NCBI GenBank assembly: GCA_039809865.1
Contig: JBDHVW010000040.1
Location: 2,731 to 66,730, forward strand
Source of the DNA: Vulcanimicrobiota bacterium
GTDB taxonomy: Bacteria; Vulcanimicrobiota; Xenobia; Xenobiales; QWHO01
Direction: 5' to 3'
DNA: 64,000 bases
Part shown: one piece after another, positions 2,035 to 16,892 of the stretch
Position numbering within the stretch: the first letter of the stretch is position 1
How the letters are laid out: each line of letters opens with the position of its first letter
Notes under the pieces: generated by a model
The model's database searches: none
What the model was told of the DNA's origin: nothing
Seen by the model: only the letters and a program-made list of their open reading frames with translations
Position numbers and translations under genes: made by a program

Positions 2035-3138
2035 ATGAAGTTCCGTAGAAATATAGCGACGACAGGAGCGGTCAAAAGGGCTTCGACGACAGGAGCGGTC
2101 AAAAGGGCTTCGACGACAGGAGCGGTCCCGGCGATAGCGACGACCGGAGCGGTCCGAAGGGCTGCGACGATGGGGGCCGTTGGATGTGTCCTGGCGTTGT
2201 TGCTGGTGGCGGCGATGCCTTCGCCCACGCTGATGCTGCAGAACGACGGCACGCTGTTTCTCTATGAAACCTCCGCGCCGGCCGTGCTGGAGCGGTCGAC
2301 GGCGGACCTTTCGCGCTATGGCGCCGTGGATGACCGTTTGCCGGTGCGTCGCGTGGACCTTCCCGGGGTCAAAGGCGACCTCATCGACGGCGATGTGGCG
2401 GACAACACCACGTATTACTACCGCCTGGCGCTGGACGGCGCGTTCTCGCCCGTCTGCTCGGTGACCACCCCGAACCGGCCGGTGCCCCCCCTGACAGCGC
2501 CGTCCATCCTGATCGACAAGGTAAACTACTACCTGGAGCTGCGCGATGGCGGGGTTCCGGTAAAGCGCTATCCCTTCTCGATGGGCAAGCGGTGCGGGCG
2601 CAAGGTCTGCCTCGACCGCGCCTCCACGCCCGAAGGCCGATTCCGCATCACGGGCATCCAGTTCGAGTCGAACTACTATGCGGCTTACGACCTGGACTAC
2701 CCCACCGCCGTCGATAAGGCGCGCTACGCTTTCTACAAGAAGCACGACCTCTTGCCGGAGCCGGGCCGGCCGATCGGGGGCGACATCCAGATCCACGGGT
2801 CGGGCGACTGGTACGAATGGAATTGGAACCTCAACAGCAACTGGACCTGGGGCTGCGTCGGCCTGCGAGATTTCGACCTGGACGAGCTCCTGGCCCAGGA
2901 GCAGATCGGCCCGGGGACCCCGGTCACCATCGTGGGCACGGAGATCACCCGCGAGGATCTGGCAGCGATCGATCAGTGCGACCGGGCCGCCGTGGCGCGC
3001 GCCCTGCAGCGGGAGCTGGGCGAGGGGGCACGCTGCGACAGCGAGTGGCTGGGTCGCTACCAGCTGCGCAAAGGACTGCCGGTCACGTGCCAGGCGGACG
3101 CGCGCACCCAGAAGCTGCTGGGAGTGCTCAAGCCCTGA
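2035..3138 (+). CDS. L,D-transpeptidase (YkuD family), exported, with FN3-like segment and C-terminal peptidoglycan-binding-like tail
   Basis: [12 protein letters not shown]...KRYP...TPEGRF...LDYP...IQIHG...WTWGC gives the His/Cys catalytic pair. Hydrophobic signal [12 protein letters not shown]. The true start may be the ATG at 2170. Confidence 0.82.
2057..2181. repeat. 27-bp tandem repeat, 5 copies, degenerating
   Basis: Unit cgacgacaggagcggtcaaaagggctt starts at 2057, 2084, 2111, 2138 and 2165, and encodes (A/S)TTGAVxxx repeats. Confidence 0.9.
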
Positions 3139-3239: not shown

Positions 3240-4807
3240 GTACATGTTTAGCGGATACCCCGTCGGGAAATCGGCAAGCAGCGGCCAAGCCGTTGTAGAG
3301 TCTATGGTGGCGGCGTCCTGAATGTGAGCGGGCCTAGCCGTCGCGGGGCCAGCGGACCAGAGTGCTCAGGCTGCCCCAGCTCTTCAGGGCTTCGAGCACG
3401 ACTGCGGTGAAGTCGACGCCTTGCTGACGGCAGGTCGCGAAGACGCTGGTGAGCGTCTCGGTGACTTTGGCTCCGCGCTCGGTCTTGTTCCCGGCCGAGA
3501 TCTTGCGGCTCAGCACCAGCGGACGGAGCTGTCGCTCGGCGAGGTTGTTGGTGGCGTCTACGCCTTCTTGATAGAGGAACGTGAGGAGGTTGGCCTGGTG
3601 CTTGCGCAGGCGGTTGGCAATCTTGAGGTTCTTCGAGTCGGTAATCTTGCCGGCCAGGAGCTCACCGATCCGGTGGCCGATGTTGGCGCGGCGGCGAGAA
3701 AACTCGTCGGCATCGAGTGTCGCCCGCTCGGCCGCAAGAGTGATCGCCTCTTTCAGGAGCGCGATGGCCCGTCTGGGAAAGTTCACGGCTCCCCGGGTCT
3801 GGAGGCGTTCGATGTCCTTCAGGGTGCGCAGGAAGTGGGCCAGACACTTGGACTTCAGTTCGTAGGGAAGGACGTTGTAGACCGCCAGGCAATCGCTCAC
3901 GAGACACCCACCAAAATTGGGTCCGAGCACCCGAAGAGCAACCTTGTGAGACCTGCTGTTGGTGATGACGAACAGCGTGAATTGGTCGTTTGCGAAGACC
4001 CAGGCCCAGTTCGTGAGCGACCGGACCCACCAGCCAGTCTCATCAACGTGCGCCACCTTGCCGCTCCGGATTGCAGCCGCGATGGCTTGGTAGGTAGCGT
4101 CCAGGCACTGCGCCGTGTTCGAGAAGATCCCGAAGAGCCCACCCGCACTGACCCGGAGCCCGAACTGGTCTTGCAGCACAGCTGCAATCTTCTCAAGCGG
4201 TGCACCCAGCTGCACGCGCAGGCGTACCGCAAACGCGGCCGCGTTCGGTCCGATCGACGTTCCGGCGGCACCAGTGGCGACCGAGATCTGGTCAGGATGC
4301 CGTCGATGGGTTCGGCACTTGCAGCACGGGCAGAATCCGCTTGTCGTAACGAACCTGCGTCGATGGACAGTCATGACGGGCAGCTCGTCGACGAACTGCT
4401 CTTGAGTGCGAAGATCGATGAGGGCGCCGCCGCAGTGCTCACAGCCTTGCGGCGGGTCGACAACGACCGTCTCGTCGACTTGCTCCGGTTGCGGCCTCCA
4501 GGCGGCCTGGTGGCCCTTCGGACGGCCCGGAGGCTTCTTCTCGGGCTTGGGCTCCTCGCGCCGGAACGGAGCCGCTTGTCGCTTGGGTGCCCTCTGCGCC
4601 TCAAGCAGCATTGCCTCCGTCCGCTCCTGACGAGCCTTCAGCTCCGCATTCTCGGCTCGCAGCTTGGCGTTCTCCTCGCGCAGTTGCTTGAGCTCTGCCA
4701 GAAGGGCCTTGATCTCGTCGGCTTGGGCCATAGAACGAGCCTTCGATCTCGCAGGCCAAGTACCTTGCGCATCCTTGAACTTTTTTCACAATGCGCTAAA
4801 CATGTAC
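3240..4807 (-). mobile_element. IS66-family insertion sequence, single-ORF (ISBst12-like), 1568 bp
   Basis: Terminal inverted repeats gtacatgtttagcg (3240-3253) and cgctaaacatgtac (4794-4807) flank one TnpC ORF. No target-site duplication is visible. Confidence 0.88.
3334..4731 (-). CDS. tnpC: IS66 family transposase
   Basis: N-terminal coiled coil, KKPPGRPKGH, Zn finger CEHCG...CPCC, HVDETGW, LVSDC, KCLAHFLR and ATNNLAERQLRP. Confidence 0.95.
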   Translation of the reverse strand: MAQADEIKALLAELKQLREENAKLRAENAELKARQERTEAMLLEAQRAPKRQAAPFRREEPKPEKKPPGRPKGHQAAWRPQPEQVDETVVVDPPQGCEHCGGALIDLRTQEQFVDELPVMTVHRRRFVTTSGFCPCCKCRTHRRHPDQISVATGAAGTSIGPNAAAFAVRLRVQLGAPLEKIAAVLQDQFGLRVSAGGLFGIFSNTAQCLDATYQAIAAAIRSGKVAHVDETGWWVRSLTNWAWVFANDQFTLFVITNSRSHKVALRVLGPNFGGCLVSDCLAVYNVLPYELKSKCLAHFLRTLKDIERLQTRGAVNFPRRAIALLKEAITLAAERATLDADEFSRRRANIGHRIGELLAGKITDSKNLKIANRLRKHQANLLTFLYQEGVDATNNLAERQLRPLVLSRKISAGNKTERGAKVTETLTSVFATCRQQGVDFTAVVLEALKSWGSLSTLVRWPRDG

Positions 4808-8201: not shown

Positions 8202-10778
8202 CTACCTGCGCCGCCGCCTTTGTCTGGCCCAATCCTCCAGATCGAGCCGGTTGATGAGAAGATTGTCGAGCAGACGAACGGCCCGAATGCTTCCACCTTT
8301 TATGGCCCGGGCGATTGTTGCCCTGGTGGTCCCCACAATCCGGGCGGCCTCTCTCTGGTTGATGATCAGAGGCAACGGGCCCGGGTCGAGACCCGACCGC
8401 TCCAGAAAATCGCGCCACCATGGCTCCAGCTCCTCCGGGCGCGCGGCCGCCCCCAGGGGCTTCAAAACGTCGGGCTCGATTCCGGTCAGAAGGGCCATCT
8501 GCTCGGCTGACACCATATGCCGTGAGCGGTACCAAGCCTGCAAGTCGTCCGGGGCGAACATATATTGGAAGAGCTTTCCCTTGAAGCTCTGGCGCCGGGC
8601 CGGCAACTGCCCCCGGAGGGCCGCCTGGTGGATCAGATCGCGTTTGCAGCCGAGCAAGTCCGCCGCCTGCACCACGTCGAGCGCGCCCGGGATGCCGGCC
8701 TCGGCCGGCGCCACCTCGGCGAAATACTGCTTCGCAAACTCAAGGACTGCCTCGCGAGGCAAGAGATAGACCGGTCGGTTTCCGACGGAAATCTTTTGGG
8801 CTGGCAGCTTGCCTTGCCCATGGGCCCTCCTCAAAACATCGATGGAGACTCCGGTCAGCCGGGAGGCCTCCTCAAACTTGACGAACTCCTCCTGGATGGC
8901 GGGGGGTAAAGCAAAGGCTCGCCTCTCCTCGAGCTGTGCCAGCCATGGCTCCATCTCTTCGCGTCGCACCACCAGACCACGCCGGAGGCCCAGAACTCCC
9001 TGGGGGAACCAGGCCCTGATCGCCCGGAGCTTGTTGGCTCGAATGGCATTGCCGATGGTCACGGTCGAAATGCCCAGTTTCTCGCTCCAGCCACGCACGC
9101 TCAGAGCGCCTTCGGGCGGAAGCTCCTGGCGCAACCACTCGGTGAAAACGGAACGCTGGACCAGGAGGCGATAGCCGCAGCCATCCGGTACGGGCCTTTT
9201 CACACCCGGAAAGCGGCCCTGAGCGATAAATCGGCCCAACGAATTCGGATGAAATCCGCTCAGCTCGGCGGCCTGGCTCAAGCTCAACAGCTCCCCGAGG
9301 TTTTCGTCCGGATGAAACTCCAGTCTTGCCTTGTAGCTCGAGGCCCATTCCTGGAGCTGCTCGCCCCGAACCACGAACCACCTCAGACGGCGATGAGTGC
9401 GCTCCTCGGCGTGCAGCTCGCCCTGCTGGATCGCTCTGCGGATGACGCACGGGTGAAGGTGAACCGTCCGACCTGCCTGGAGAATGGAATAGCAGTCAGG
9501 CTCGACGGGGCGTTCGATCGTGCGAAAGCTTGCCGCCAGGTCGAGATCCCCTCGCAGGATTCGATAGCTGAAGCCGAACTGGCCGAGGCCGGCGACGCGC
9601 TCGCCGGGCAATTCCCCACGAAGGAGCAGTCCCCGTAGCCTCCGAGCGTGGACGCCGGTCAGGTGGGCCACGGTCGGCAGAGGGAGACGCTCGTTGCAGC
9701 TCAACCACTCCTCAAAAACCGTCTGGTCCAAAAATTGCGGCTTCCTCGGGTCGGCGGCAAGCTCCCCCGCGCGCAGCGCCTTGAGAATGCAGCCGATGGG
9801 AGCCCCGGCTCGGCCCGCTGCCTGAACCACCGTCAGCCCGGCGCCAGAGGCCACGTTTTCCAGAACTCGCTTGAAACCACCATAGCGCGCCTTGACTTGA
9901 CCCCTGAGCCATTCGTCGGCCTGGCGTAGCTCCTCCGAGCTGCCAATTCCGATCAGCTCGCGAAGCCCCAGAACGGCTTTGAGAATACCCGGCGGAGCGC
10001 CGTCGTCAGGCCACTTCTGAACTGGCTCCTCGAGCCTGGAGAGGGACAGGCCGGCCAGGGCGACGGCTTCCTCCGGGGACTCCCAGAAACGCTGGATACA
10101 CTCGGTGAGAGCCCGATTCCGGGCCAGATCGACGGCAGCAACCTGGCGCGTGAGGCCGCCCATGAGGCGCAACCGTCCCAGGACTTCGTTGGGAGACAGC
10201 ACCGGCCCCGTTAGAAAATGCTCTGGCAGAAGCGGCTGAGGCAGCGGCAGCCAGGTGCTCTCGCGGAGAGCCTCACGGGCCGTGCCGAAGTGGATCCAGA
10301 TATCCCGCAGCAGGCGGCCAAACCCTCGCCGCGCGAGCCGGCCCTCGTCGAGTGGCAGCCCGCGCTCGGCAAGTTGCGCCACTGCCAGAGCCGTGGCCCC
10401 GCGCGACCAGTGCCGGCGTGGCATATACTCCACCCGCACTCCGGCGAGCAAAAGCGCCTCGGTCCACCCCCCGAGCCGTCGCACAGCCAGGGCGACGAGA
10501 GACGCGTCAGGAAACTTTCCGCGGGGTAGCTCGGCTCCGTCCAGAATTGCGTCGCGCAGCTCCGTCCACATCTGGATCGGCGGGCGACCTCTCCTCCAGC
10601 GGCCCCGAGCGGCCGCCACGAGCCTCCAGGGCAGACCAGCTTCCTGCAGGGCCGCCACCCACGTTCCGTAGCGGTCTAGTGCCTCTCGATAGACAGCGTG
10701 GCCTGCGACCCGAATGGCCTGAGAAGAGGGGATGGGTCCGTGCTCGGCCCACAACGAGCGAAGGGTGGCTTCGATCAT
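8202..10778 (-). CDS. Multi-repeat putative DNA-binding protein: ~5 'FGSW..AL..AG'-type repeats plus ~8-9 tandem excisionase/MerR-like HTH units
   Basis: N-terminal repeats RYGTWVAALQEAGL, RLGGWTEALLLAGV, HFGTAREAL, RFWESPEEAVALAGL. Then units such as LSLSQAAELSGFHPNSLGRFIAQGRFPG, LDVVQAADLLGCKRDLIHQAALRGQLPA and INQREAARIVGTTRATIARAIKGGSIRA. Confidence 0.75.
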   Translation of the reverse strand: MIEATLRSLWAEHGPIPSSQAIRVAGHAVYREALDRYGTWVAALQEAGLPWRLVAAARGRWRRGRPPIQMWTELRDAILDGAELPRGKFPDASLVALAVRRLGGWTEALLLAGVRVEYMPRRHWSRGATALAVAQLAERGLPLDEGRLARRGFGRLLRDIWIHFGTAREALRESTWLPLPQPLLPEHFLTGPVLSPNEVLGRLRLMGGLTRQVAAVDLARNRALTECIQRFWESPEEAVALAGLSLSRLEEPVQKWPDDGAPPGILKAVLGLRELIGIGSSEELRQADEWLRGQVKARYGGFKRVLENVASGAGLTVVQAAGRAGAPIGCILKALRAGELAADPRKPQFLDQTVFEEWLSCNERLPLPTVAHLTGVHARRLRGLLLRGELPGERVAGLGQFGFSYRILRGDLDLAASFRTIERPVEPDCYSILQAGRTVHLHPCVIRRAIQQGELHAEERTHRRLRWFVVRGEQLQEWASSYKARLEFHPDENLGELLSLSQAAELSGFHPNSLGRFIAQGRFPGVKRPVPDGCGYRLLVQRSVFTEWLRQELPPEGALSVRGWSEKLGISTVTIGNAIRANKLRAIRAWFPQGVLGLRRGLVVRREEMEPWLAQLEERRAFALPPAIQEEFVKFEEASRLTGVSIDVLRRAHGQGKLPAQKISVGNRPVYLLPREAVLEFAKQYFAEVAPAEAGIPGALDVVQAADLLGCKRDLIHQAALRGQLPARRQSFKGKLFQYMFAPDDLQAWYRSRHMVSAEQMALLTGIEPDVLKPLGAAARPEELEPWWRDFLERSGLDPGPLPLIINQREAARIVGTTRATIARAIKGGSIRAVRLLDNLLINRLDLEDWARQRRRRR

Positions 10779-10792
10779 GGGCTACGGACTCT

Positions 10793-11233
10793 TTAGAAGT
10801 AAATCCAGGGGCTGGCCGGGACGCCTGTCAGTTTCTCCTGCGCCTGGTCGAGGTCGCGCAGGAACTGCGCCTGCTCTTTGGACTCTTCCTTCAGGCTCGC
10901 TTCGCGGTTCTCCAGGCCCCGATGGGCCAGGTAGAGCCCTACGGCCACGCCGCCCAGGACCATCCCGCGGGTGACGTCGCCGGTGGCGGCGTTCAAGAGG
11001 GCGGAAAACCCGATCCCGAAGGCCCCGCCTCTGGTCATCGCGCTGCCGATACCGGCCCAGGCCGTCTGCTTGCCGATGTGGTTGAGCTCTTGGAAACCGT
11101 TCTGGCGGATCTCATCCAGGTCGTTGCCCGGAGTGGCCTCGAGGCGATCGTTGTACGAGTAGCGGGCCGGAGTTTCGGGGCCGGGCGTGGGCACATAGGA
11201 AACCAGCTGCGGGCGGGCGACGGAGATCTGCAT
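10793..11233 (-). CDS. Hypothetical membrane-associated protein with Gly-rich hydrophobic hairpin
   Basis: MQISVARPQ... start, with AWAGIGSAMTRGGAFGIGFSALL and MVLGGVAVGLYLA. It ends 14 nt before the multi-HTH gene. Confidence 0.65.
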   Translation of the reverse strand: MQISVARPQLVSYVPTPGPETPARYSYNDRLEATPGNDLDEIRQNGFQELNHIGKQTAWAGIGSAMTRGGAFGIGFSALLNAATGDVTRGMVLGGVAVGLYLAHRGLENREASLKEESKEQAQFLRDLDQAQEKLTGVPASPWIYF

Positions 11234-11284
11234 GCGGTTACTCTGGCTGGAAGCACTGAAAAAGACCTGAACACATTTTCGGGA

Positions 11285-11313
11285 TTGACAGCTCCCTGGA
11301 AAATGAATATTGT
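11285..11313 (+). promoter_or_regulatory. Sigma70-type promoter
   Basis: TTGACA (11285-11290), a 17-nt spacer, then TATTGT (11308-11313), in an AT-rich intergenic patch. Confidence 0.72.
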
Positions 11314-11318
11314 GCAAG

Positions 11319-11535
11319 CGTCGGCCTACAACGCCGACCGAATCGGAAAGCGATAGACCGACGCTCCAGGTTGGCGAAACAGCCTGGCGGGCTGCCAGAA
11401 ACCGAGACTGGCAGGGTCTCGATTGCGCAAGCGCGAGACTGGCCTGGCTACAATGCCAGGAGTGGCCGGTGAGGACGGGGCCGGCTAGCCAATTCCCCAT
11501 GGTTCTTGCAAAGCCACCGCGAGGTGGCTTTTGTG
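11319..11535 (+). ncRNA. Candidate structured small RNA (~215 nt, 7-8 consecutive hairpins)
   Basis: Lies between the promoter and a terminator. Back-to-back stems GTCGGC/GCCGAC, CCAGGTTG/CAGCCTGG, CTGCCAG/CTGGCAG, GTCTCG/CGAGAC, CCTGGC/GCCAGG and TGGCCGGT/GCCGGCTA. No convincing ORF. Confidence 0.6.
11510..11535 (+). terminator. Intrinsic terminator
   Basis: AAAGCCACC-GCGA-GGTGGCTTT followed by TGTGTT. Confidence 0.7.
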
Positions 11536-11548
11536 TTATCCTGGCGCA

Positions 11549-12172
11549 ATGAGAAAGCTCTCCGTGTTGCTCGCGCTCCTGATGCTGCTGCCCCTCGTGG
11601 CTCAAGAGCTCAAGCATTATTCCAACAGCCCCTACAAGTTCAGCTTCGACTATCCGGCCGACTTCGAGCTGAACGAAGACCAGGAGCAGCTCCGGAAGAT
11701 CATGGACACGGGCCAGGACGTCATCGACACTTCCAAGATGTCCCCCGAGCTACGCGACGCGATGACGCACGTCGGGCCCCAGTTCATCCTGGGCGCTCCC
11801 AGCGGCGCGGTGATGGTCTGCCTCACCACGCCGGTCAACGAAGCGCAACTGGCCGTGCCCACGCTCGACCTGGCCCGCGCCAGCCTGAAGGAGGCCATCG
11901 TCACCATCCCGGGCAGCAAGACGCTCTCCGAGCCCGCCGAGGTGATGATGGGCGACAATCTGCTGGTCCGCTACGAGCTCGAGCTGCAGGTGAAAGACGA
12001 GACCACCACCCGCCAGGTGCAATACATGGTGCGCAACTCCGAGCTCCGCGCGCTCTACCTGTTCGCGGTCACCTCGGACTCGAGCACGTTCGGGACCGAC
12101 GTGGTGCCGTTCGAGACCATCATCAAGAGCCTCAAGCTCGATTTCGCCACCAGCGACCGCGGCCAGGGCTAG
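11549..12172 (+). CDS. Exported protein, PsbP/DcrB-like fold
   Basis: Signal peptide MRKLSVLLALLMLLPLVA, YSNSPYKFSFDYPADF N-terminal motif, and FETIIKSLKL end. TGnTATCCT lies 6 nt before the ATG. Confidence 0.7.
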   Translation: MRKLSVLLALLMLLPLVAQELKHYSNSPYKFSFDYPADFELNEDQEQLRKIMDTGQDVIDTSKMSPELRDAMTHVGPQFILGAPSGAVMVCLTTPVNEAQLAVPTLDLARASLKEAIVTIPGSKTLSEPAEVMMGDNLLVRYELELQVKDETTTRQVQYMVRNSELRALYLFAVTSDSSTFGTDVVPFETIIKSLKLDFATSDRGQG

Positions 12173-12174
12173 AT

Positions 12175-12223
12175 GGAGATGGGAGATGGGAGACGGGAGA
12201 CGGGAGACGGGAGACCGGAGATC
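12175..12223. repeat. 7-bp tandem repeat GGAGAY(G/C) x7 between convergent genes
   Basis: ggagatg ggagatg ggagacg ggagacg ggagacg ggagacc ggagatc. Confidence 0.9.
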
Positions 12224-12224
12224 G

Positions 12225-13097
12225 TTAAATGATTCCGTCTTCGCCCAGGGGGCGGTCGGGGGCGGGTCCTCCGCCGGCATCCAGCCCGTATTCCCGCTTG
12301 GCGTGCTCGATGAGCACGCGGCCCGAGCTGATCATCTGCTCGGCCTCGGGGATGATCTTGAGGGCGCGGTCCAGGACGCTCTGGTCGAGCCGCTCGACGA
12401 AGGTGCGGGAGATGCGGCACGCCTCCTGAAGCGTGCGCAGGCCGGTCTTCACGCGCTCGAGCCCGAGCAGATAGTGCTCGTTGTCGAACATCGGCAGGTA
12501 GCTTAAATCGGCGTATTCGTTGCCGACATCGAGGTTCAGGCTCTTGACGCGGCCGCTGAACAGCACCGGCTGCAGCTGGTGGGCCCGCACCTGGGCGATC
12601 AGCGTGCGCAGGCGCTCGCACGACGGGTTGCTCTCGGCCTTGCCCAGGCGCAACGGGGAGGCTTCCTCCTGCTGCTTGGTCTCCCACAGCGAGCGCTCGG
12701 GCGTGAGGTTGCGGCCGCAACTCTCGCAATTGGTCATCCAGAGCTGGTTGATCGTGCCGCATTGCGAGCAGGTCAGCTCGAACGAGATCTTCTTGCCGAC
12801 CGTCAGCTCCTCCACCCGCGTCTGGAGCGCGGAGAGGTAGCTGCGCACCGTGGCCAGCTCCTGCTCGAAGCTCGACTGCAGGGTGCCGAGGTAGGCGCGC
12901 AGCTCGTCCTCGGAGAGACCTTCGGCGGCGCACAGCTCGGCCAGCTTCTCGTGGCTCGACAGGGCCTCTCGCACGGCCGAGAGATACTCCTGGAAACTGG
13001 CCCCCGCTTTGGCGCCGCGCAGGGTCTGCACCACCTCTTCCGCGGGCGCGGGGGCGGACGAGCCGAGCAGACCCTGAAGCAGCGACATCCAGCTCAT
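12225..13097 (-). CDS. Hypothetical helical protein with a zinc ribbon
   Basis: CSQCG...CESCG motif and genome-typical codon usage. Starts 1 nt after the DUF1152 stop. Confidence 0.7.
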   Translation of the reverse strand: MSWMSLLQGLLGSSAPAPAEEVVQTLRGAKAGASFQEYLSAVREALSSHEKLAELCAAEGLSEDELRAYLGTLQSSFEQELATVRSYLSALQTRVEELTVGKKISFELTCSQCGTINQLWMTNCESCGRNLTPERSLWETKQQEEASPLRLGKAESNPSCERLRTLIAQVRAHQLQPVLFSGRVKSLNLDVGNEYADLSYLPMFDNEHYLLGLERVKTGLRTLQEACRISRTFVERLDQSVLDRALKIIPEAEQMISSGRVLIEHAKREYGLDAGGGPAPDRPLGEDGII

Positions 13098-13098
13098 A

Positions 13099-14055
13099 TC
13101 AGTGCGGGATCGGTTCCCAACCCTTCATCGGAGGATACTGCTTGCGAAACTCGCTCACCACCCGCTCCACGTCCGTGTAGCTGCGGGTTTGCAGCAGCTC
13201 CTTGAGGTAGAGGCAGCGCCGACACACGGCGTCGACCTCGTAGGACCAGTACTGACTCATCAGGGGACTGATGAACAGCTTCGACCCTTTCGTGCGCCAG
13301 GTTCGATGATGATCGCCAAAATGCCCCTCGAGAGCCGATGCGATGGAATTCGAGACGACGCTGGGCGACCCTGGCAGGGCCAAGTTCGCAAAGTCGACCG
13401 CCTGCAGGAAGAGCTGCGCCTCGGGCATCTCCGGCAAGAGCGAGAACGCGCCCAGAAAGCCACCGCGCTTCTGCAGCGCGGCGGTGTTCTCGAGAAAGCT
13501 GGCGTGGCACACTCCGTCGAACGCGTCGACCCCGAAGCCGAGGCAGGTCAGCACGCGGTAGGGCACGTCCTTCAAGCCGTGGACGGCCGCCAGGCTGGTG
13601 AGATCCTCGTGGGGGGTGCCCAGGCCCACCTCGTCGCCGCGCATCAGGCTGTCGGTGCCGCCGTCGACCAGTACGATGGCATCGAGTCCGAGCCAGTCGG
13701 TGAGCTTGCGCCAGGCGTCGGCCAGCGTCACGACGCCAGTGCGCGAGAAGCAGAAGATGGAGATCTTCTCGCCGTGGGTCTGGAACCACTGGCAGAGCGT
13801 GCGCTCGGGGAAATACTCGTCCGAGCCCCGGGTGTCGACATCGATCTCGGTCAGGGCGGGCGCGATGCGGCGCCCCGTCTCGGGCCGAAGCGAGGCAAAG
13901 GACATGTTGCCCAGATAGACTTGCTCCACGCGGGGACGCAGATAGAAGTAGAGCGGTAGCCCCACATACAGATCGAAGCCGCCCCCCGCGCCGCACAGCA
14001 GCACCCGGCGGGCCCGCGAGAGGCGCTGCAGGACGGGCGGAACACCAAAGTCCAT
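13099..14055 (-). CDS. DUF1152 family protein
   Basis: LCGAGGGFD, DAIVLVDGGTDSLMRGDEVGLGTPHED and CLGFGVD. Confidence 0.85.
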   Translation of the reverse strand: MDFGVPPVLQRLSRARRVLLCGAGGGFDLYVGLPLYFYLRPRVEQVYLGNMSFASLRPETGRRIAPALTEIDVDTRGSDEYFPERTLCQWFQTHGEKISIFCFSRTGVVTLADAWRKLTDWLGLDAIVLVDGGTDSLMRGDEVGLGTPHEDLTSLAAVHGLKDVPYRVLTCLGFGVDAFDGVCHASFLENTAALQKRGGFLGAFSLLPEMPEAQLFLQAVDFANLALPGSPSVVSNSIASALEGHFGDHHRTWRTKGSKLFISPLMSQYWSYEVDAVCRRCLYLKELLQTRSYTDVERVVSEFRKQYPPMKGWEPIPH

Positions 14056-14989: not shown

Positions 14990-16123
14990 ATGCGCGTTTT
15001 GTCGCTCATCTGTCTGATTCTGCTGGGACTGGTCTTGCCCTTGCGGGCCGAGATCGTCCCGGTTCCCCCCGATTTCGAGCTGGACAAGCAGTTGCCCGGC
15101 TCCGATCCCTACTGGATCATCCGCCCGACGTTCTCGTACGACGGCAAGTATATCGCCGGCTTCTTCAATTCCACCAAGGTCCTGACCGTGTGGGAAGTGG
15201 CCTCCGGCAAGGTCGTCAAGGAGATCGGCCCGGGCGTTCACAAGCTCGATTCGATCGATGGTCTCGAGTTCACGCTCGATTCCAAGCAGATCATCCTGCT
15301 GCGCAACTTCCAGCCCATGAAGTGGATCGACTGGAGCGCCGGCACGGTGACCAAAGAGCTGGCCACCAACGCGGACCCGAAGAAGATCATGGACTACAGC
15401 TTCAGTCCCGACCAGGGTCTGGTGGCCATCGCCACGTCGACCGGCGTGGCCCTGTGGGACGTGAAGGCGGGCAAGAAGCTCAAGACCTTCGTCGAGGGCA
15501 CGCCCATCTGCTCGGTGGACTGGCTCGAGTACACCCCGCCCAAGCAGAAAAAGGTGCGCCTGCTGGCCTACGGCAAGCCGCTGATGCCCCCCAACACCAC
15601 CTGGAAGGACGTGGCCGGGATCATCGACATCGATTCCGGTAAAGTCACGCCCATCCTGAACGACATCCCCGCCGACAAGAAGGTGGACGGCAAGATGACG
15701 TTCTCCTTCGTGCGCTGGGAGTGGGGCGGACAGTACCTGCTGGTGACCTACTGGAACCTGCCGCCCAGCCAGAAGGCCGGCGCGGTGCTGGTGGACACGT
15801 TCACGGGCAAGTACCTGGCCAACCACGATCTGGAGGAGCTGGCGGTGGGCTGGGCCCCGCGCTATCTGGGCAAGCCGTTTTACGGTTTCGAGGTGGCCAC
15901 CTGGGACATCACCGGCAACCCCTACAAGACGGCCGCCCAGTTCCTGGTGCCCACCAGGAAGGAAGGCCTGAAGATCCTGGACACCATCAACGAGACGGTG
16001 ATCCCGATCCAGTCCATCTCGGTCAACCGCACGGGCACGATGGCGGCCATCACCACCAAGCCCGACCCCACCGCCCCCAGCCAGCTGTTCCTTTACAAGC
16101 TGGTGCCTAGGAAGACGCCTTAA
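14990..16123 (+). CDS. Exported WD40-like beta-propeller protein
   Basis: Signal peptide MRVLSLICLILLGLVLPLRA. Blades FSYDGKYIA...VWEVASGK and FSPDQGLVA...LWDVKAGK. Confidence 0.8.
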   Translation: MRVLSLICLILLGLVLPLRAEIVPVPPDFELDKQLPGSDPYWIIRPTFSYDGKYIAGFFNSTKVLTVWEVASGKVVKEIGPGVHKLDSIDGLEFTLDSKQIILLRNFQPMKWIDWSAGTVTKELATNADPKKIMDYSFSPDQGLVAIATSTGVALWDVKAGKKLKTFVEGTPICSVDWLEYTPPKQKKVRLLAYGKPLMPPNTTWKDVAGIIDIDSGKVTPILNDIPADKKVDGKMTFSFVRWEWGGQYLLVTYWNLPPSQKAGAVLVDTFTGKYLANHDLEELAVGWAPRYLGKPFYGFEVATWDITGNPYKTAAQFLVPTRKEGLKILDTINETVIPIQSISVNRTGTMAAITTKPDPTAPSQLFLYKLVPRKTP

Positions 16124-16487
16124 GCGCCTCGTCGAACGCGGCCGGGTCGGTGTAGAGCCTCATCAGCTCGCCCAACTCGGCAAAGCGCTTCACGAATTCA
16201 GCCGAGAGCTGGATGAACTTCGAGCCGGTGAGCATGTTGATGCATGTGAACCGGCTCTTGTTTTTGCCCAGATAGAGGGCCCAGGCCCCGCTGACATCGA
16301 TGCTGGCGGCTTTGGCGTCGCGGGCGTCGATGAAGAGCTCGACTTTCCGGTCGAGGAGGTGCTTGTCGAGCAGAACGAAGGGCGCCTGGTCATACTGGCC
16401 GGCATCCTGGCCGTCGAAAACGACCAGCACCACGCTGGGCGCGGGGCGGGTGATGGTGATGGCTCCGTGCTCGGATTCGAGTCGCAT
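16107..16487 (-). CDS. Small STAS/SpoIIAA-like hypothetical protein
   Basis: Alpha/beta pattern VVLVVFDG...LFIDARD...YTDPAAFDEAL. The fold call is tentative. Confidence 0.55.
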   Translation of the reverse strand: MRLESEHGAITITRPAPSVVLVVFDGQDAGQYDQAPFVLLDKHLLDRKVELFIDARDAKAASIDVSGAWALYLGKNKSRFTCINMLTGSKFIQLSAEFVKRFAELGELMRLYTDPAAFDEALKASS

Positions 16488-16513
16488 CCTTAGAGCTTCT
16501 GGAAAACAGAAGA

Positions 16514-16538
16514 GGCTTCCTCGCCAGGCGGGGAAGCC
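16514..16538 (-). terminator. Probable intrinsic terminator
   Basis: GGCTTCC...GGAAGCC hairpin followed on the minus strand by TCTTCTGTTTT, downstream of the 16565 gene. Confidence 0.5.
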
Positions 16539-16564
16539 ACTTCAGCCCTCAGGCAGAAAAAATC

Positions 16565-16774
16565 TTACTTTTTGAGAGCCGCGCGGGTCAGTTCGCCCTG
16601 GCGCTGGACTTCCAGCACCAGGCGGCGGATGCACACGCTGTAGAGCACTGCCAGACCGGGCTGGTCGCCGAAGCTAATGGTAGCACCGGCGGGCAGCTCC
16701 AGGTTGAGCAAGGGCCCCATCGTATCTTCGAGCGCCCTGATTTTGGCGTCGATCGCGTCAATGTTTTCAGCCAC
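16565..16774 (-). CDS. Small hypothetical protein (69 aa)
   Basis: GGAGG SD then GTG at 16774: (M)AENIDAIDAKIRALED... Confidence 0.55.
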   Translation of the reverse strand: MAENIDAIDAKIRALEDTMGPLLNLELPAGATISFGDQPGLAVLYSVCIRRLVLEVQRQGELTRAALKK

Positions 16775-16892
16775 TGTATCCCTCCCAGTGTTCGATGGAA
16801 TTGCCTGCCGTTCGACGGCCATGTTGATCTGCCTTCCGCGGTGAAGAGTTTTCTTCCCAAGGCGAGGGGGACGTGCTATACTGCCGCCCGTT

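Follow-up and report, generated by a model that had tools for sequence, protein, structure and literature searches.

The 64,000-nucleotide (nt) stretch of DNA analysed here, called the window throughout, comes from contig JBDHVW010000040.1 of a Vulcanimicrobiota bacterium (assembly GCA_039809865.1). Its intergenic region 11234–11548 separates the gene for a 146-amino-acid (aa) predicted membrane protein from the gene for a 207-aa protein, and it holds what we interpret as a probable gene for a structured non-coding RNA on the plus strand (Table 1). A sequence-only reading of this region had described a TTGACA-17-TATTGT promoter followed by seven to eight consecutive hairpins and an intrinsic terminator; all of these are present where that reading had placed them, as are the GCGAAA, GCAA and GCGA loops it had listed, which belong to P2, the inner part of P4 and the terminal hairpin, respectively. 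Transcription would start at the first G of P1 (11320), 7 nt past the −10 hexamer, and would end within the U tract that follows the terminal hairpin, at about position 11538; both ends are predicted from the promoter, the terminator and the conserved spacing between promoter and P1. The terminator consists of a stem of 9 base pairs (bp; 11510–11531) followed by TTTTGTGTT. A comparative structure model of the RNA has an energy of −84.3 kcal/mol, and its unconstrained minimum free energy fold one of −101.0 kcal/mol.

Table 1. Features of the predicted RNA gene and the two genes that border its intergenic region, in window coordinates.
Feature	Coordinates	Strand	Description
146-aa predicted membrane protein gene	10793–11233	−	divergent; homologs in L001 and L002 at 10001–10456; no known family
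Sigma-70-type promoter	11285–11313	+	TTGACA 11285–11290, 17-nt spacer, TATTGT 11308–11313; 10 of 12 consensus positions
Predicted RNA gene, ~218 nt	11320–11538	+	ends placed from promoter, terminator and conserved promoter-to-P1 spacing
P1 hairpin	11320–11338	+	GUCGGC-CUACAAC-GCCGAC, 6 bp
Near-invariant 27-nt segment	11339–11365	+	CGAAUCGGAAAGCGAUAGACCGACGCU; from the alignment of three sequences
P2 hairpin	11366–11387	+	8 bp, invariant GCGAAA loop
CGGG linker	11388–11391	+	conserved; part of the GGCGGGCUG motif preceding every P3 copy
P3 hairpin	11392–11414	+	CUGCCAG-AAACCGAGA-CUGGCAG
P4 hairpin	11416–11439	+	GUCUCG...CGAGAC with inner UGC-GCAA-GCG hairpin
P5 hairpin	11443–11460	+	CCUGGC-UACAAU-GCCAGG
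P6 hairpin	11464–11486	+	GGCCGG-UGAGGACGGGG-CCGGCU; conserved CCAGGAG 11456–11462 just before
Terminal hairpin T and U-rich tail	11510–11538	+	AAAGCCACC-GCGA-GGUGGCUUU, then UUUUGUGUU
207-aa protein gene	11549–12172	+	signal-peptide-like N-terminus; GC content at third codon positions (GC3) 0.88; outside the RNA

Relatives were obtained by scanning genome contigs with an alignment of the 146-aa protein family, which gave two loci from 237 pattern matches: L001, in a Candidatus Xenobia metagenome-assembled genome (MAG), and L002, in a Candidatus Eremiobacteraeota MAG, with 10.9 and 20.5 kb of locus sequence, respectively. The class Candidatus Xenobia falls in the phylum Vulcanimicrobiota. By blastn, the intergenic region of the window matches the two loci at 79–80% identity over 87 nt (E 2e-15 and 2e-16), with further matching segments of 31 nt at 93.5% identity and at the terminal hairpin. 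As to the homologs and covariation that the sequence-only reading had proposed to look for, homologs exist in these two Xenobia loci, from uncultured and distantly related bacteria, and their stems carry compensatory changes. In both, the RNA lies about 1 kb beyond the homolog of the 146-aa gene, in the same relative orientation; directly upstream of that homolog there is no RNA in either locus, and about 60 nt are followed by a different gene. The order in L001 is 146-aa gene, phosphatase-like gene, promoter, RNA, convergent zinc-ribbon gene and DUF1152 gene. The end of the convergent gene there comes only 7 nt after the terminal hairpin of the RNA; this gene is the homolog of the zinc-ribbon protein gene of the window (12225–13097).

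Only three of 16 window proteins match the two loci by tblastn, namely the 146-aa protein (57–58% identity), the zinc-ribbon protein (57–59%) and the DUF1152 protein (79–80%). Their genes form, together with the RNA, a conserved block in which the 146-aa membrane protein gene and the RNA are followed by the convergent zinc-ribbon protein gene and the DUF1152 gene; this block (window 10793–14055; L001 6632–10456; L002 6596–10456) is the only synteny with the loci. The genes inserted beside the RNA differ, being a ComB-like phosphatase gene in the two relatives and the 207-aa gene in the window; the inserted L001 product is 2-phosphosulfolactate-phosphatase-like at 177 bits, below the NCBIfam cut-off of 330. 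Since the 207-aa gene is absent from the relatives and a convergent gene follows the RNA there, the element is not a leader, in agreement with the sequence-only reading, which had argued against a simple one. The RNA keeps its position while the adjacent genes differ and no co-oriented gene comes after it, which excludes a conserved leader or riboswitch role. Neither the 207-aa gene nor the gene for a protein with multiple helix-turn-helix (HTH) stretches has a tblastn match in the 10.9 and 20.5 kb around the homologs, and the link to the multi-HTH operon that had been suggested for the RNA is not borne out. Just downstream of the 146-aa homolog, L001 also carries a 171-nt tandem repeat (10578–10925; 2.0 copies, 92% matches) that runs to the contig end; no comparable tandem array is present in L002 10400–14000.

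The promoter is conserved together with the RNA. In L001 it reads TTGACA-17-TAGATT (9096–9068) and stands 7 nt from the first hairpin, the same distance as in the window, and the same promoter site was found in L002 by reading the sequence. Within the 64,000 bases of the window, TTGACA-N16–18-TANNNT occurs at a single site on both strands, where 0.06 are expected, and 6 of 100 shuffles contain at least one such site. The promoter is called from its consensus match and its conserved position rather than from a mapped start of transcription. At the other end, the terminal hairpin is kept in both relatives, and the pair at its base is G-C in L001 and A-U in L002, a double change.

Between these ends, the stems change in step while many loops and linkers stay fixed. 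The P1 stem GUCGGC/GCCGAC becomes GUCGAC/GUCGAC in both relatives through one G-C to A-U double change; since MAFFT misplaces the 5' arm of this helix by one column, P1 pairs were counted from coordinates instead. The P1 loop is not conserved (GGCGAC/GCGA in L001 and L002). Downstream of P1, the 27-nt segment is identical in 23 of 27 columns across all three sequences, and in 24 of 27 between the window and L001. It could form a 4-bp helix between UCGG (11343–11346) and CCGA (11358–11361), and RNAalifold pairs part of the segment; this helix is invariant, so covariation neither supports nor refutes it. P2 is where most of the rewriting is seen: CCAGGUUG-GCGAAA-CAGCCUGG in the window stands against CCGCACGA-GCGAAA-UCGUGAGG in the relatives, with four double changes, one single change and one pair lost in L001 and L002, and a loop that is identical across the orthologs. 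Of GGCGGGCTG the window RNA has a single copy, and L001 and L002 have three apiece. For P3, seven copies (six distinct) could be compared, and 42 of 42 cells pair, the covariation score being reached in 2 of 500 shuffles. Its stem is CUGCCAG/CUGGCAG in three copies and CUGUCGG/CCGACAG in four paralogous copies, which amounts to two double changes (C-G to U-A and A-U to G-C), and CCG is retained in every loop. The outer stem of P4 is retained in five of five copies, with one U-A to U-G change and a variable interior, and the 5-bp CCUGG/CCAGG stem of P5 is invariant in five of five copies. In the relatives P5 encloses inserts of 58–61 nt that carry an 18-nt stretch identical in both copies. P6 was compared in five copies and pairs in 24 of 24 cells; one of its pairs has changed on both sides (G-C to U-G) and another on one side only, and the 11 nt of its loop hardly vary (UGAGGNYGGRG).

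An exact 10-nt direct repeat, CGAGACTGGC, lies within the RNA at 11403–11412 and 11434–11443 (two matches against 0.34 expected). Because it is present twice, GUCUCG (11416–11421) is able to pair with either copy; in L001 a comparable second CGAGA was seen by eye inside P4a.

In a helix table built from coordinates, double changes affect 9 of 48 pairs and single changes three, and two positions are unpaired in some sequence. When P2 and P3 are taken together, 95.6% of 45 cells pair, against 23–42% with the partners slid, and the observed values are reached in 4 of 500 shuffles. Across seven units the figures are 93% of 100 cells, against 22–52% when slid, with double changes in 7 of 15 pairs and a covariation score reached in none of 500 shuffles, on an alignment that was itself fitted to the model. 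Between the two relatives there are 22 substitutions in 647 nt, 11 at unpaired and 11 at paired positions of the RNAalifold structure; all 11 of the latter keep pairing, two of them by double changes, in a structure that was predicted from the same two sequences and so favours this outcome. Across the three genomes, of which two are close, conservation with compensatory changes is independent of the flanking genes. At the DNA level the window and L001 share 77% identity in the 5' domain, with the three flanking genes at 69–77%; between L001 and L002 the RNA is 96.6% identical, with three neighbouring genes at 87.0, 88.3 and 92.8% and the 146-aa gene at 96.7%. The G-U pairs in P2, P4 and P6 and the GCGA, GCAA, UUCG and GCGAAA loops fit the plus strand only.

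The relatives carry a longer version of the same element. It spans about 640 nt in L001 and L002, with the P2–P3 core present three times and P4–P5–P6 twice, and this repetition of the core makes the RNA three times longer there. The repeated core comprises CGCUCC, P2 with a GCGARA loop, GGCGGGCUG, P3 and GGGG, about 50 nt within repeats of about 100 nt, and CCAGGAG and CCGGTGAGG occur twice each. A covariance model of the 5' domain scores 113–127 bits on the three orthologs (window, L001 and L002; 95,381 bases in all) and finds two more internal matches per relative (22–35 bits, E 1e-8 to 6e-5); in the window beyond the ortholog, no match is better than E 0.18. Judging by this comparison, the window RNA is the minimal, one-unit form of a modular RNA.

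No known family accounts for the element. All 4227 models of Rfam 15 gave no match in the whole window at gathering thresholds, in line with the sequence-only reading, which by eye had seen no resemblance to 6S, SRP, tmRNA, RNase P or a known riboswitch. In E-value mode, region 11100–11700 gave five weak matches (E 0.59–8.9, at most 14.5 bits against gathering scores of at least 37), the best of which is merely the terminator hairpin, and L001 8300–9200 gave three (E 0.62–4.5; best 19.2 bits against a gathering score of 47). ARAGORN found no tRNA or tmRNA gene in the window. None of the repeat families of the window includes the RNA, and the covariance model found no second copy in the window nor outside the one locus in each relative across the 95,381 bases; a multicopy repetitive extragenic palindrome (REP) or miniature inverted-repeat transposable element (MITE), which the sequence-only reading had named as an outcome that would speak against its proposal, is rejected, the RNA being single-copy in the sequence searched. 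Distant-mode blastn against plasmid and phage collections (E ≤ 0.01) gave no match to the RNA. Literature searches on Eremiobacterota, Xenobia and non-coding RNA turned up no paper that, by its title or the start of its abstract, concerns such an RNA.

Coding potential was weighed for the same region. Codon-position GC is flat (0.57–0.60) in all six frames of the intergenic region, the window's genes having GC3 values of 0.75–0.9, and the alignment of the window with its relatives places one- and two-base indels inside the conserved part of the RNA. The indels and the flat codon-position GC indicate that the region is not coding, and two overlapping open reading frames (ORFs), of 80 aa on the plus strand and 274 aa on the minus strand, are rejected as genes on the same grounds. 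Neither the codon bias nor the frame-preserving evolution of a small protein is seen, and the arms of P2 are rewritten by paired changes. Fold energy is a poorer guide. The plus strand of 11315–11535 has a fold energy of −105.5 kcal/mol, the mean of its shuffles being −84.9 ± 4.7 (z −4.41; none of 200 shuffles as stable), and the minus strand folds nearly equally well (z −4.08), so energy alone does not determine the strand. The top-ranked stretch for fold stability, 16121–16780, is a coding region; because the best-folding stretch is coding, fold stability is weak evidence for RNA genes here. A small unlisted gene of about 126 codons (16107–16487, minus strand, GC3 0.81) lies in the window's most stable 220-nt folds (z −3.6).

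Taken together, we favour, with a probability of roughly 0.7, a single-copy, independently transcribed, structured non-coding RNA as the best explanation of the element, the manner in which it would bind a partner being only the leading guess. That the region really contains a stand-alone gene for a structured RNA, and that this RNA belongs to a new family, we hold to be very probable. The sequence-only reading had proposed an undescribed stand-alone structured RNA, and this proposal gains support from the lack of an Rfam match, the syntenic homologs, the conserved promoter, the compensatory changes, the absence of the 207-aa gene from the relatives and the single copy in the sequence searched. 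The family would be of a familiar kind, a stand-alone bacterial small RNA (sRNA), and is notable for its modular expansion in the relatives and for occurring in an uncultured phylum.

As to what the RNA might do, the stems vary, the loops and linkers are fixed and whole modules are repeated, and on this basis we read the hairpins as sequence-specific binding sites. The fixed parts are the GCGAAA loop, the CGGG linker, the CCG-containing P3 loop, CCAGGAG and the 11-nt P6 loop. We envision that the RNA would act in trans, that a protein or, with lower probability, a small ligand would bind these fixed sequences on its hairpins, and that the number of modules would set the amount of partner bound, as in a sequestering or scaffold RNA. 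Binding or sequestering specifically is a tentative proposal. The narrower idea that the P2–P3 core is a dedicated recognition module for a protein or ligand, with dosage tuned by one to three copies per RNA, is more speculative still; if true, an uncultured phylum would have a new class of sequestering or sensor RNA, which might form a new ribonucleoprotein with the zinc-ribbon, DUF1152 and 146-aa membrane protein neighbours.

A protein-sponge role had already been raised in the sequence-only reading, from a motif, GGC(C)TACAAYGCC, shared by two hairpins. The motif is present at the positions given (GGCCTACAACGCC at 11323–11335 and (T)GGCTACAATGCC at 11445–11457), but it is neither conserved in L001 and L002 nor enriched in the window, where seven matches with at most two mismatches compare with 4.5 expected and seven are reached in 19 of 100 shuffles. 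It is specific to the window copy, and is rejected as a conserved site because in the relatives the P1 loop differs and the P5 loop is replaced by an insert. The sponge idea has thus lost the motif that prompted it and survives as a guess that now draws on the repetition of the core module in the relatives.

Several observations weigh against this overall interpretation. The discrete RNA of about 218 nt is a prediction from sequence. The RNA comparison covers three genomes, of which L001 and L002 are nearly identical in the RNA, so that the covariation draws on some two lineages and on paralogous repeats, a sample too small for a test such as R-scape; P6 taken alone is not significant, its covariation score being reached in 93 of 500 shuffles. 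Among GC-corrected 220-nt sliding windows, 11321–11540 ranks only 21st of 1595 (z −2.07). The L001 tail past the terminal hairpin is U-poor, and the terminator scan made no call there, while in the window read-through from the RNA into the 207-aa gene is conceivable. As regards a binding partner, the family searches recognised no RNA-binding domain in the neighbouring proteins, and GGA motifs are not enriched (three in 232 nt in the window, 12 in 657 nt in L001 and L002, about the expectation from composition). A CsrA-type sponge is rejected on the lack of GGA enrichment.

Several known RNA classes invite comparison, their features being taken here from general knowledge. CsrB, RsmY and RsmZ are likewise stand-alone genes with their own promoter, a terminal hairpin and a string of hairpins showing fixed sequences, and their module number varies by species, much as one unit in the window compares with three P2–P3 units in L001 and L002; unlike them, the present RNA lacks GGA enrichment and any Csr/Rsm Rfam match, and where they repeat a short GGA hairpin it repeats a core of two hairpins, about 50 nt long. 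The 6S and Ms1-type RNAs share a length of about 200 nt, high structure, a stand-alone gene and a strong housekeeping-type promoter, but the present RNA is a series of local hairpins with neither an end-to-end closing helix nor a central bubble, its length triples in the relatives (to about 640 nt) by module repetition, and it has no Rfam 6S match. Tandem-aptamer riboswitches, such as those for glycine, also combine repeated structured modules and invariant loops or linkers with a terminator-like hairpin after them; here, in contrast, no co-oriented gene lies downstream in L001 or L002 and no aptamer model matches. A further group comprises raiA, OLE, ROOL, GOLLD and similar RNAs, which are likewise conserved, covarying, multi-helix and lineage-confined, with no assigned function, and from which the present RNA differs in matching none of the 4227 Rfam 15 models and, for the window copy, in being much smaller than the large members.

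The 27-nt segment (11339–11365) also admits the main rival reading, in which it, or another fixed loop, would be the seed by which a trans-acting sRNA base-pairs with mRNAs, the hairpins only stabilising the molecule. The identity of 23 of its 27 columns, though the neighbouring proteins are only 57–79% identical, would suit a seed, and a promoter of its own together with a terminal hairpin and U tail is what classical sRNAs have. The predicted duplexes with nine window and four L001 gene starts, however, have energies within background (mean −16.6, standard deviation 3.5 kcal/mol), with one exception at −25.2 kcal/mol in a gene without a homolog in the loci, targets having been searched within 64 kb. 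Part of the segment is placed in a helix by RNAalifold, the segment occurs in the first unit only and what is repeated in the relatives are hairpins, and an RNA of about 640 nt with three repeated units would be atypical of a seed-type sRNA. We regard this possibility as unlikely.

It could also be that the RNA is a subunit or dedicated regulator of its 146-aa, zinc-ribbon and DUF1152 neighbours, all four forming one functional module. These are the only three of the 16 window proteins with matches in the loci, and their order and orientation around the RNA agree between the window and the loci, the gene content differing beyond them. Yet the RNA has different inserted genes at its two sides, the ComB-like phosphatase gene in the relatives and the 207-aa gene in the window; DUF1152 proteins are widespread (4397 relatives, several phyla) and the RNA has been seen so far only in Xenobia; no RNA-binding domain was found; and the synteny rests on two lineages. 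On balance such a module seems rather improbable.

A non-functional origin, as a GC-rich spacer with chance hairpins and a bidirectional terminator that shared ancestry alone has kept similar, or as the decayed remnant of a repeat or mobile element, would explain why the GC-rich DNA folds on both strands (minus strand z −4.08), why the coding region 16121–16780 folds even better, and why the unit is tandemly repeated in the relatives, with an IS66 transposase gene 6.5 kb away. What it leaves unexplained are the double compensatory changes in 9 of 48 pairs beside invariant loops, a 5' domain whose 77% identity between the window and L001 equals or exceeds that of the three flanking genes (69–77%) without coding constraint, and a promoter conserved at a fixed distance; moreover, no other copy exists in the 95,381 bases and the plasmid and phage collections hold no match. 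We consider this origin very improbable.

Finally, a cis-acting 5' leader, that is, a riboswitch or attenuator of the 207-aa gene with the terminator as its expression platform, would be favoured by the position of the element directly upstream of and co-oriented with that gene (terminator stem 18 nt before the ATG) and by the mutually exclusive pairings that the two CGAGACTGGC copies allow in the window, but is rejected on synteny and hardly credible, given the convergent gene after the RNA and the lack of a 207-aa match in L001 and L002, the single relative of the 207-aa protein in 5.8 billion proteins, the lack of an Rfam aptamer match and the −10-like TGnTATCCT 6 nt before the ATG.

The junction between the RNA and the 207-aa gene is compact. 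The ATG of that gene (11549) comes 18 nt after the end of the terminator stem and 11 nt after the U-rich tail, and a second −10-like site, TGTTATCCT (TGnTATCCT, 11534–11542), lies 6 nt before the ATG, as the sequence-only reading had pointed out; this position would fit a leaderless mRNA. A 17-codon ORF, MVLAKPPRGGFCVILAQ (11498–11551), crosses the terminator hairpin, and its stop codon overlaps the ATG of the 207-aa gene (ATGA).

A search of 5.8 billion proteins returned a single relative for the 207-aa protein and eight for the 146-aa protein. At E ≤ 1e-5 the highly conserved DUF1152 protein (13099–14055, minus strand) has 4397 relatives, and it is about 50% identical to proteins named from several phyla; a PDB sequence search gave no solved-structure relative of it, and no paper on it turned up in the literature search. 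Searches of Pfam, NCBIfam, PADLOC, PDB sequences and the ESM Atlas placed the neighbours in DUF1152, DUF1697, a weak zinc-ribbon match and clusters labelled 'hypothetical protein'. The multi-HTH gene (8202–10778, minus strand), for an 858-aa protein, encodes four HTH_17 stretches (E 6.5e-32) and a homing-endonuclease-associated HNH_repeat at the N-terminus, with a PADLOC 'mad1' match over one HTH; it stands in an apparent operon with the 146-aa gene, across a 14-nt gap. An IS66-family transposase gene (3334–4731, minus strand; Pfam DDE_Tnp_IS66, E 1.3e-39) lies about 6.5 kb from the RNA, and 2057–2164 holds three copies of a 27-nt unit, two identical in tandem and one at 85%, at the start of ORF 2035–3138.

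Vulcanimicrobiota (Eremiobacterota) is a widespread phylum with hardly any cultured members. An RNA family with its own promoter, covarying stems and one to three copies of its core would be among the first regulatory RNAs defined for this lineage. The gene is at present unannotated or covered by spurious ORFs, and the covariance model can be used on Xenobia MAGs to annotate it. The family would also lend itself well to the question of which partners such an RNA, built of hairpin modules, may have.

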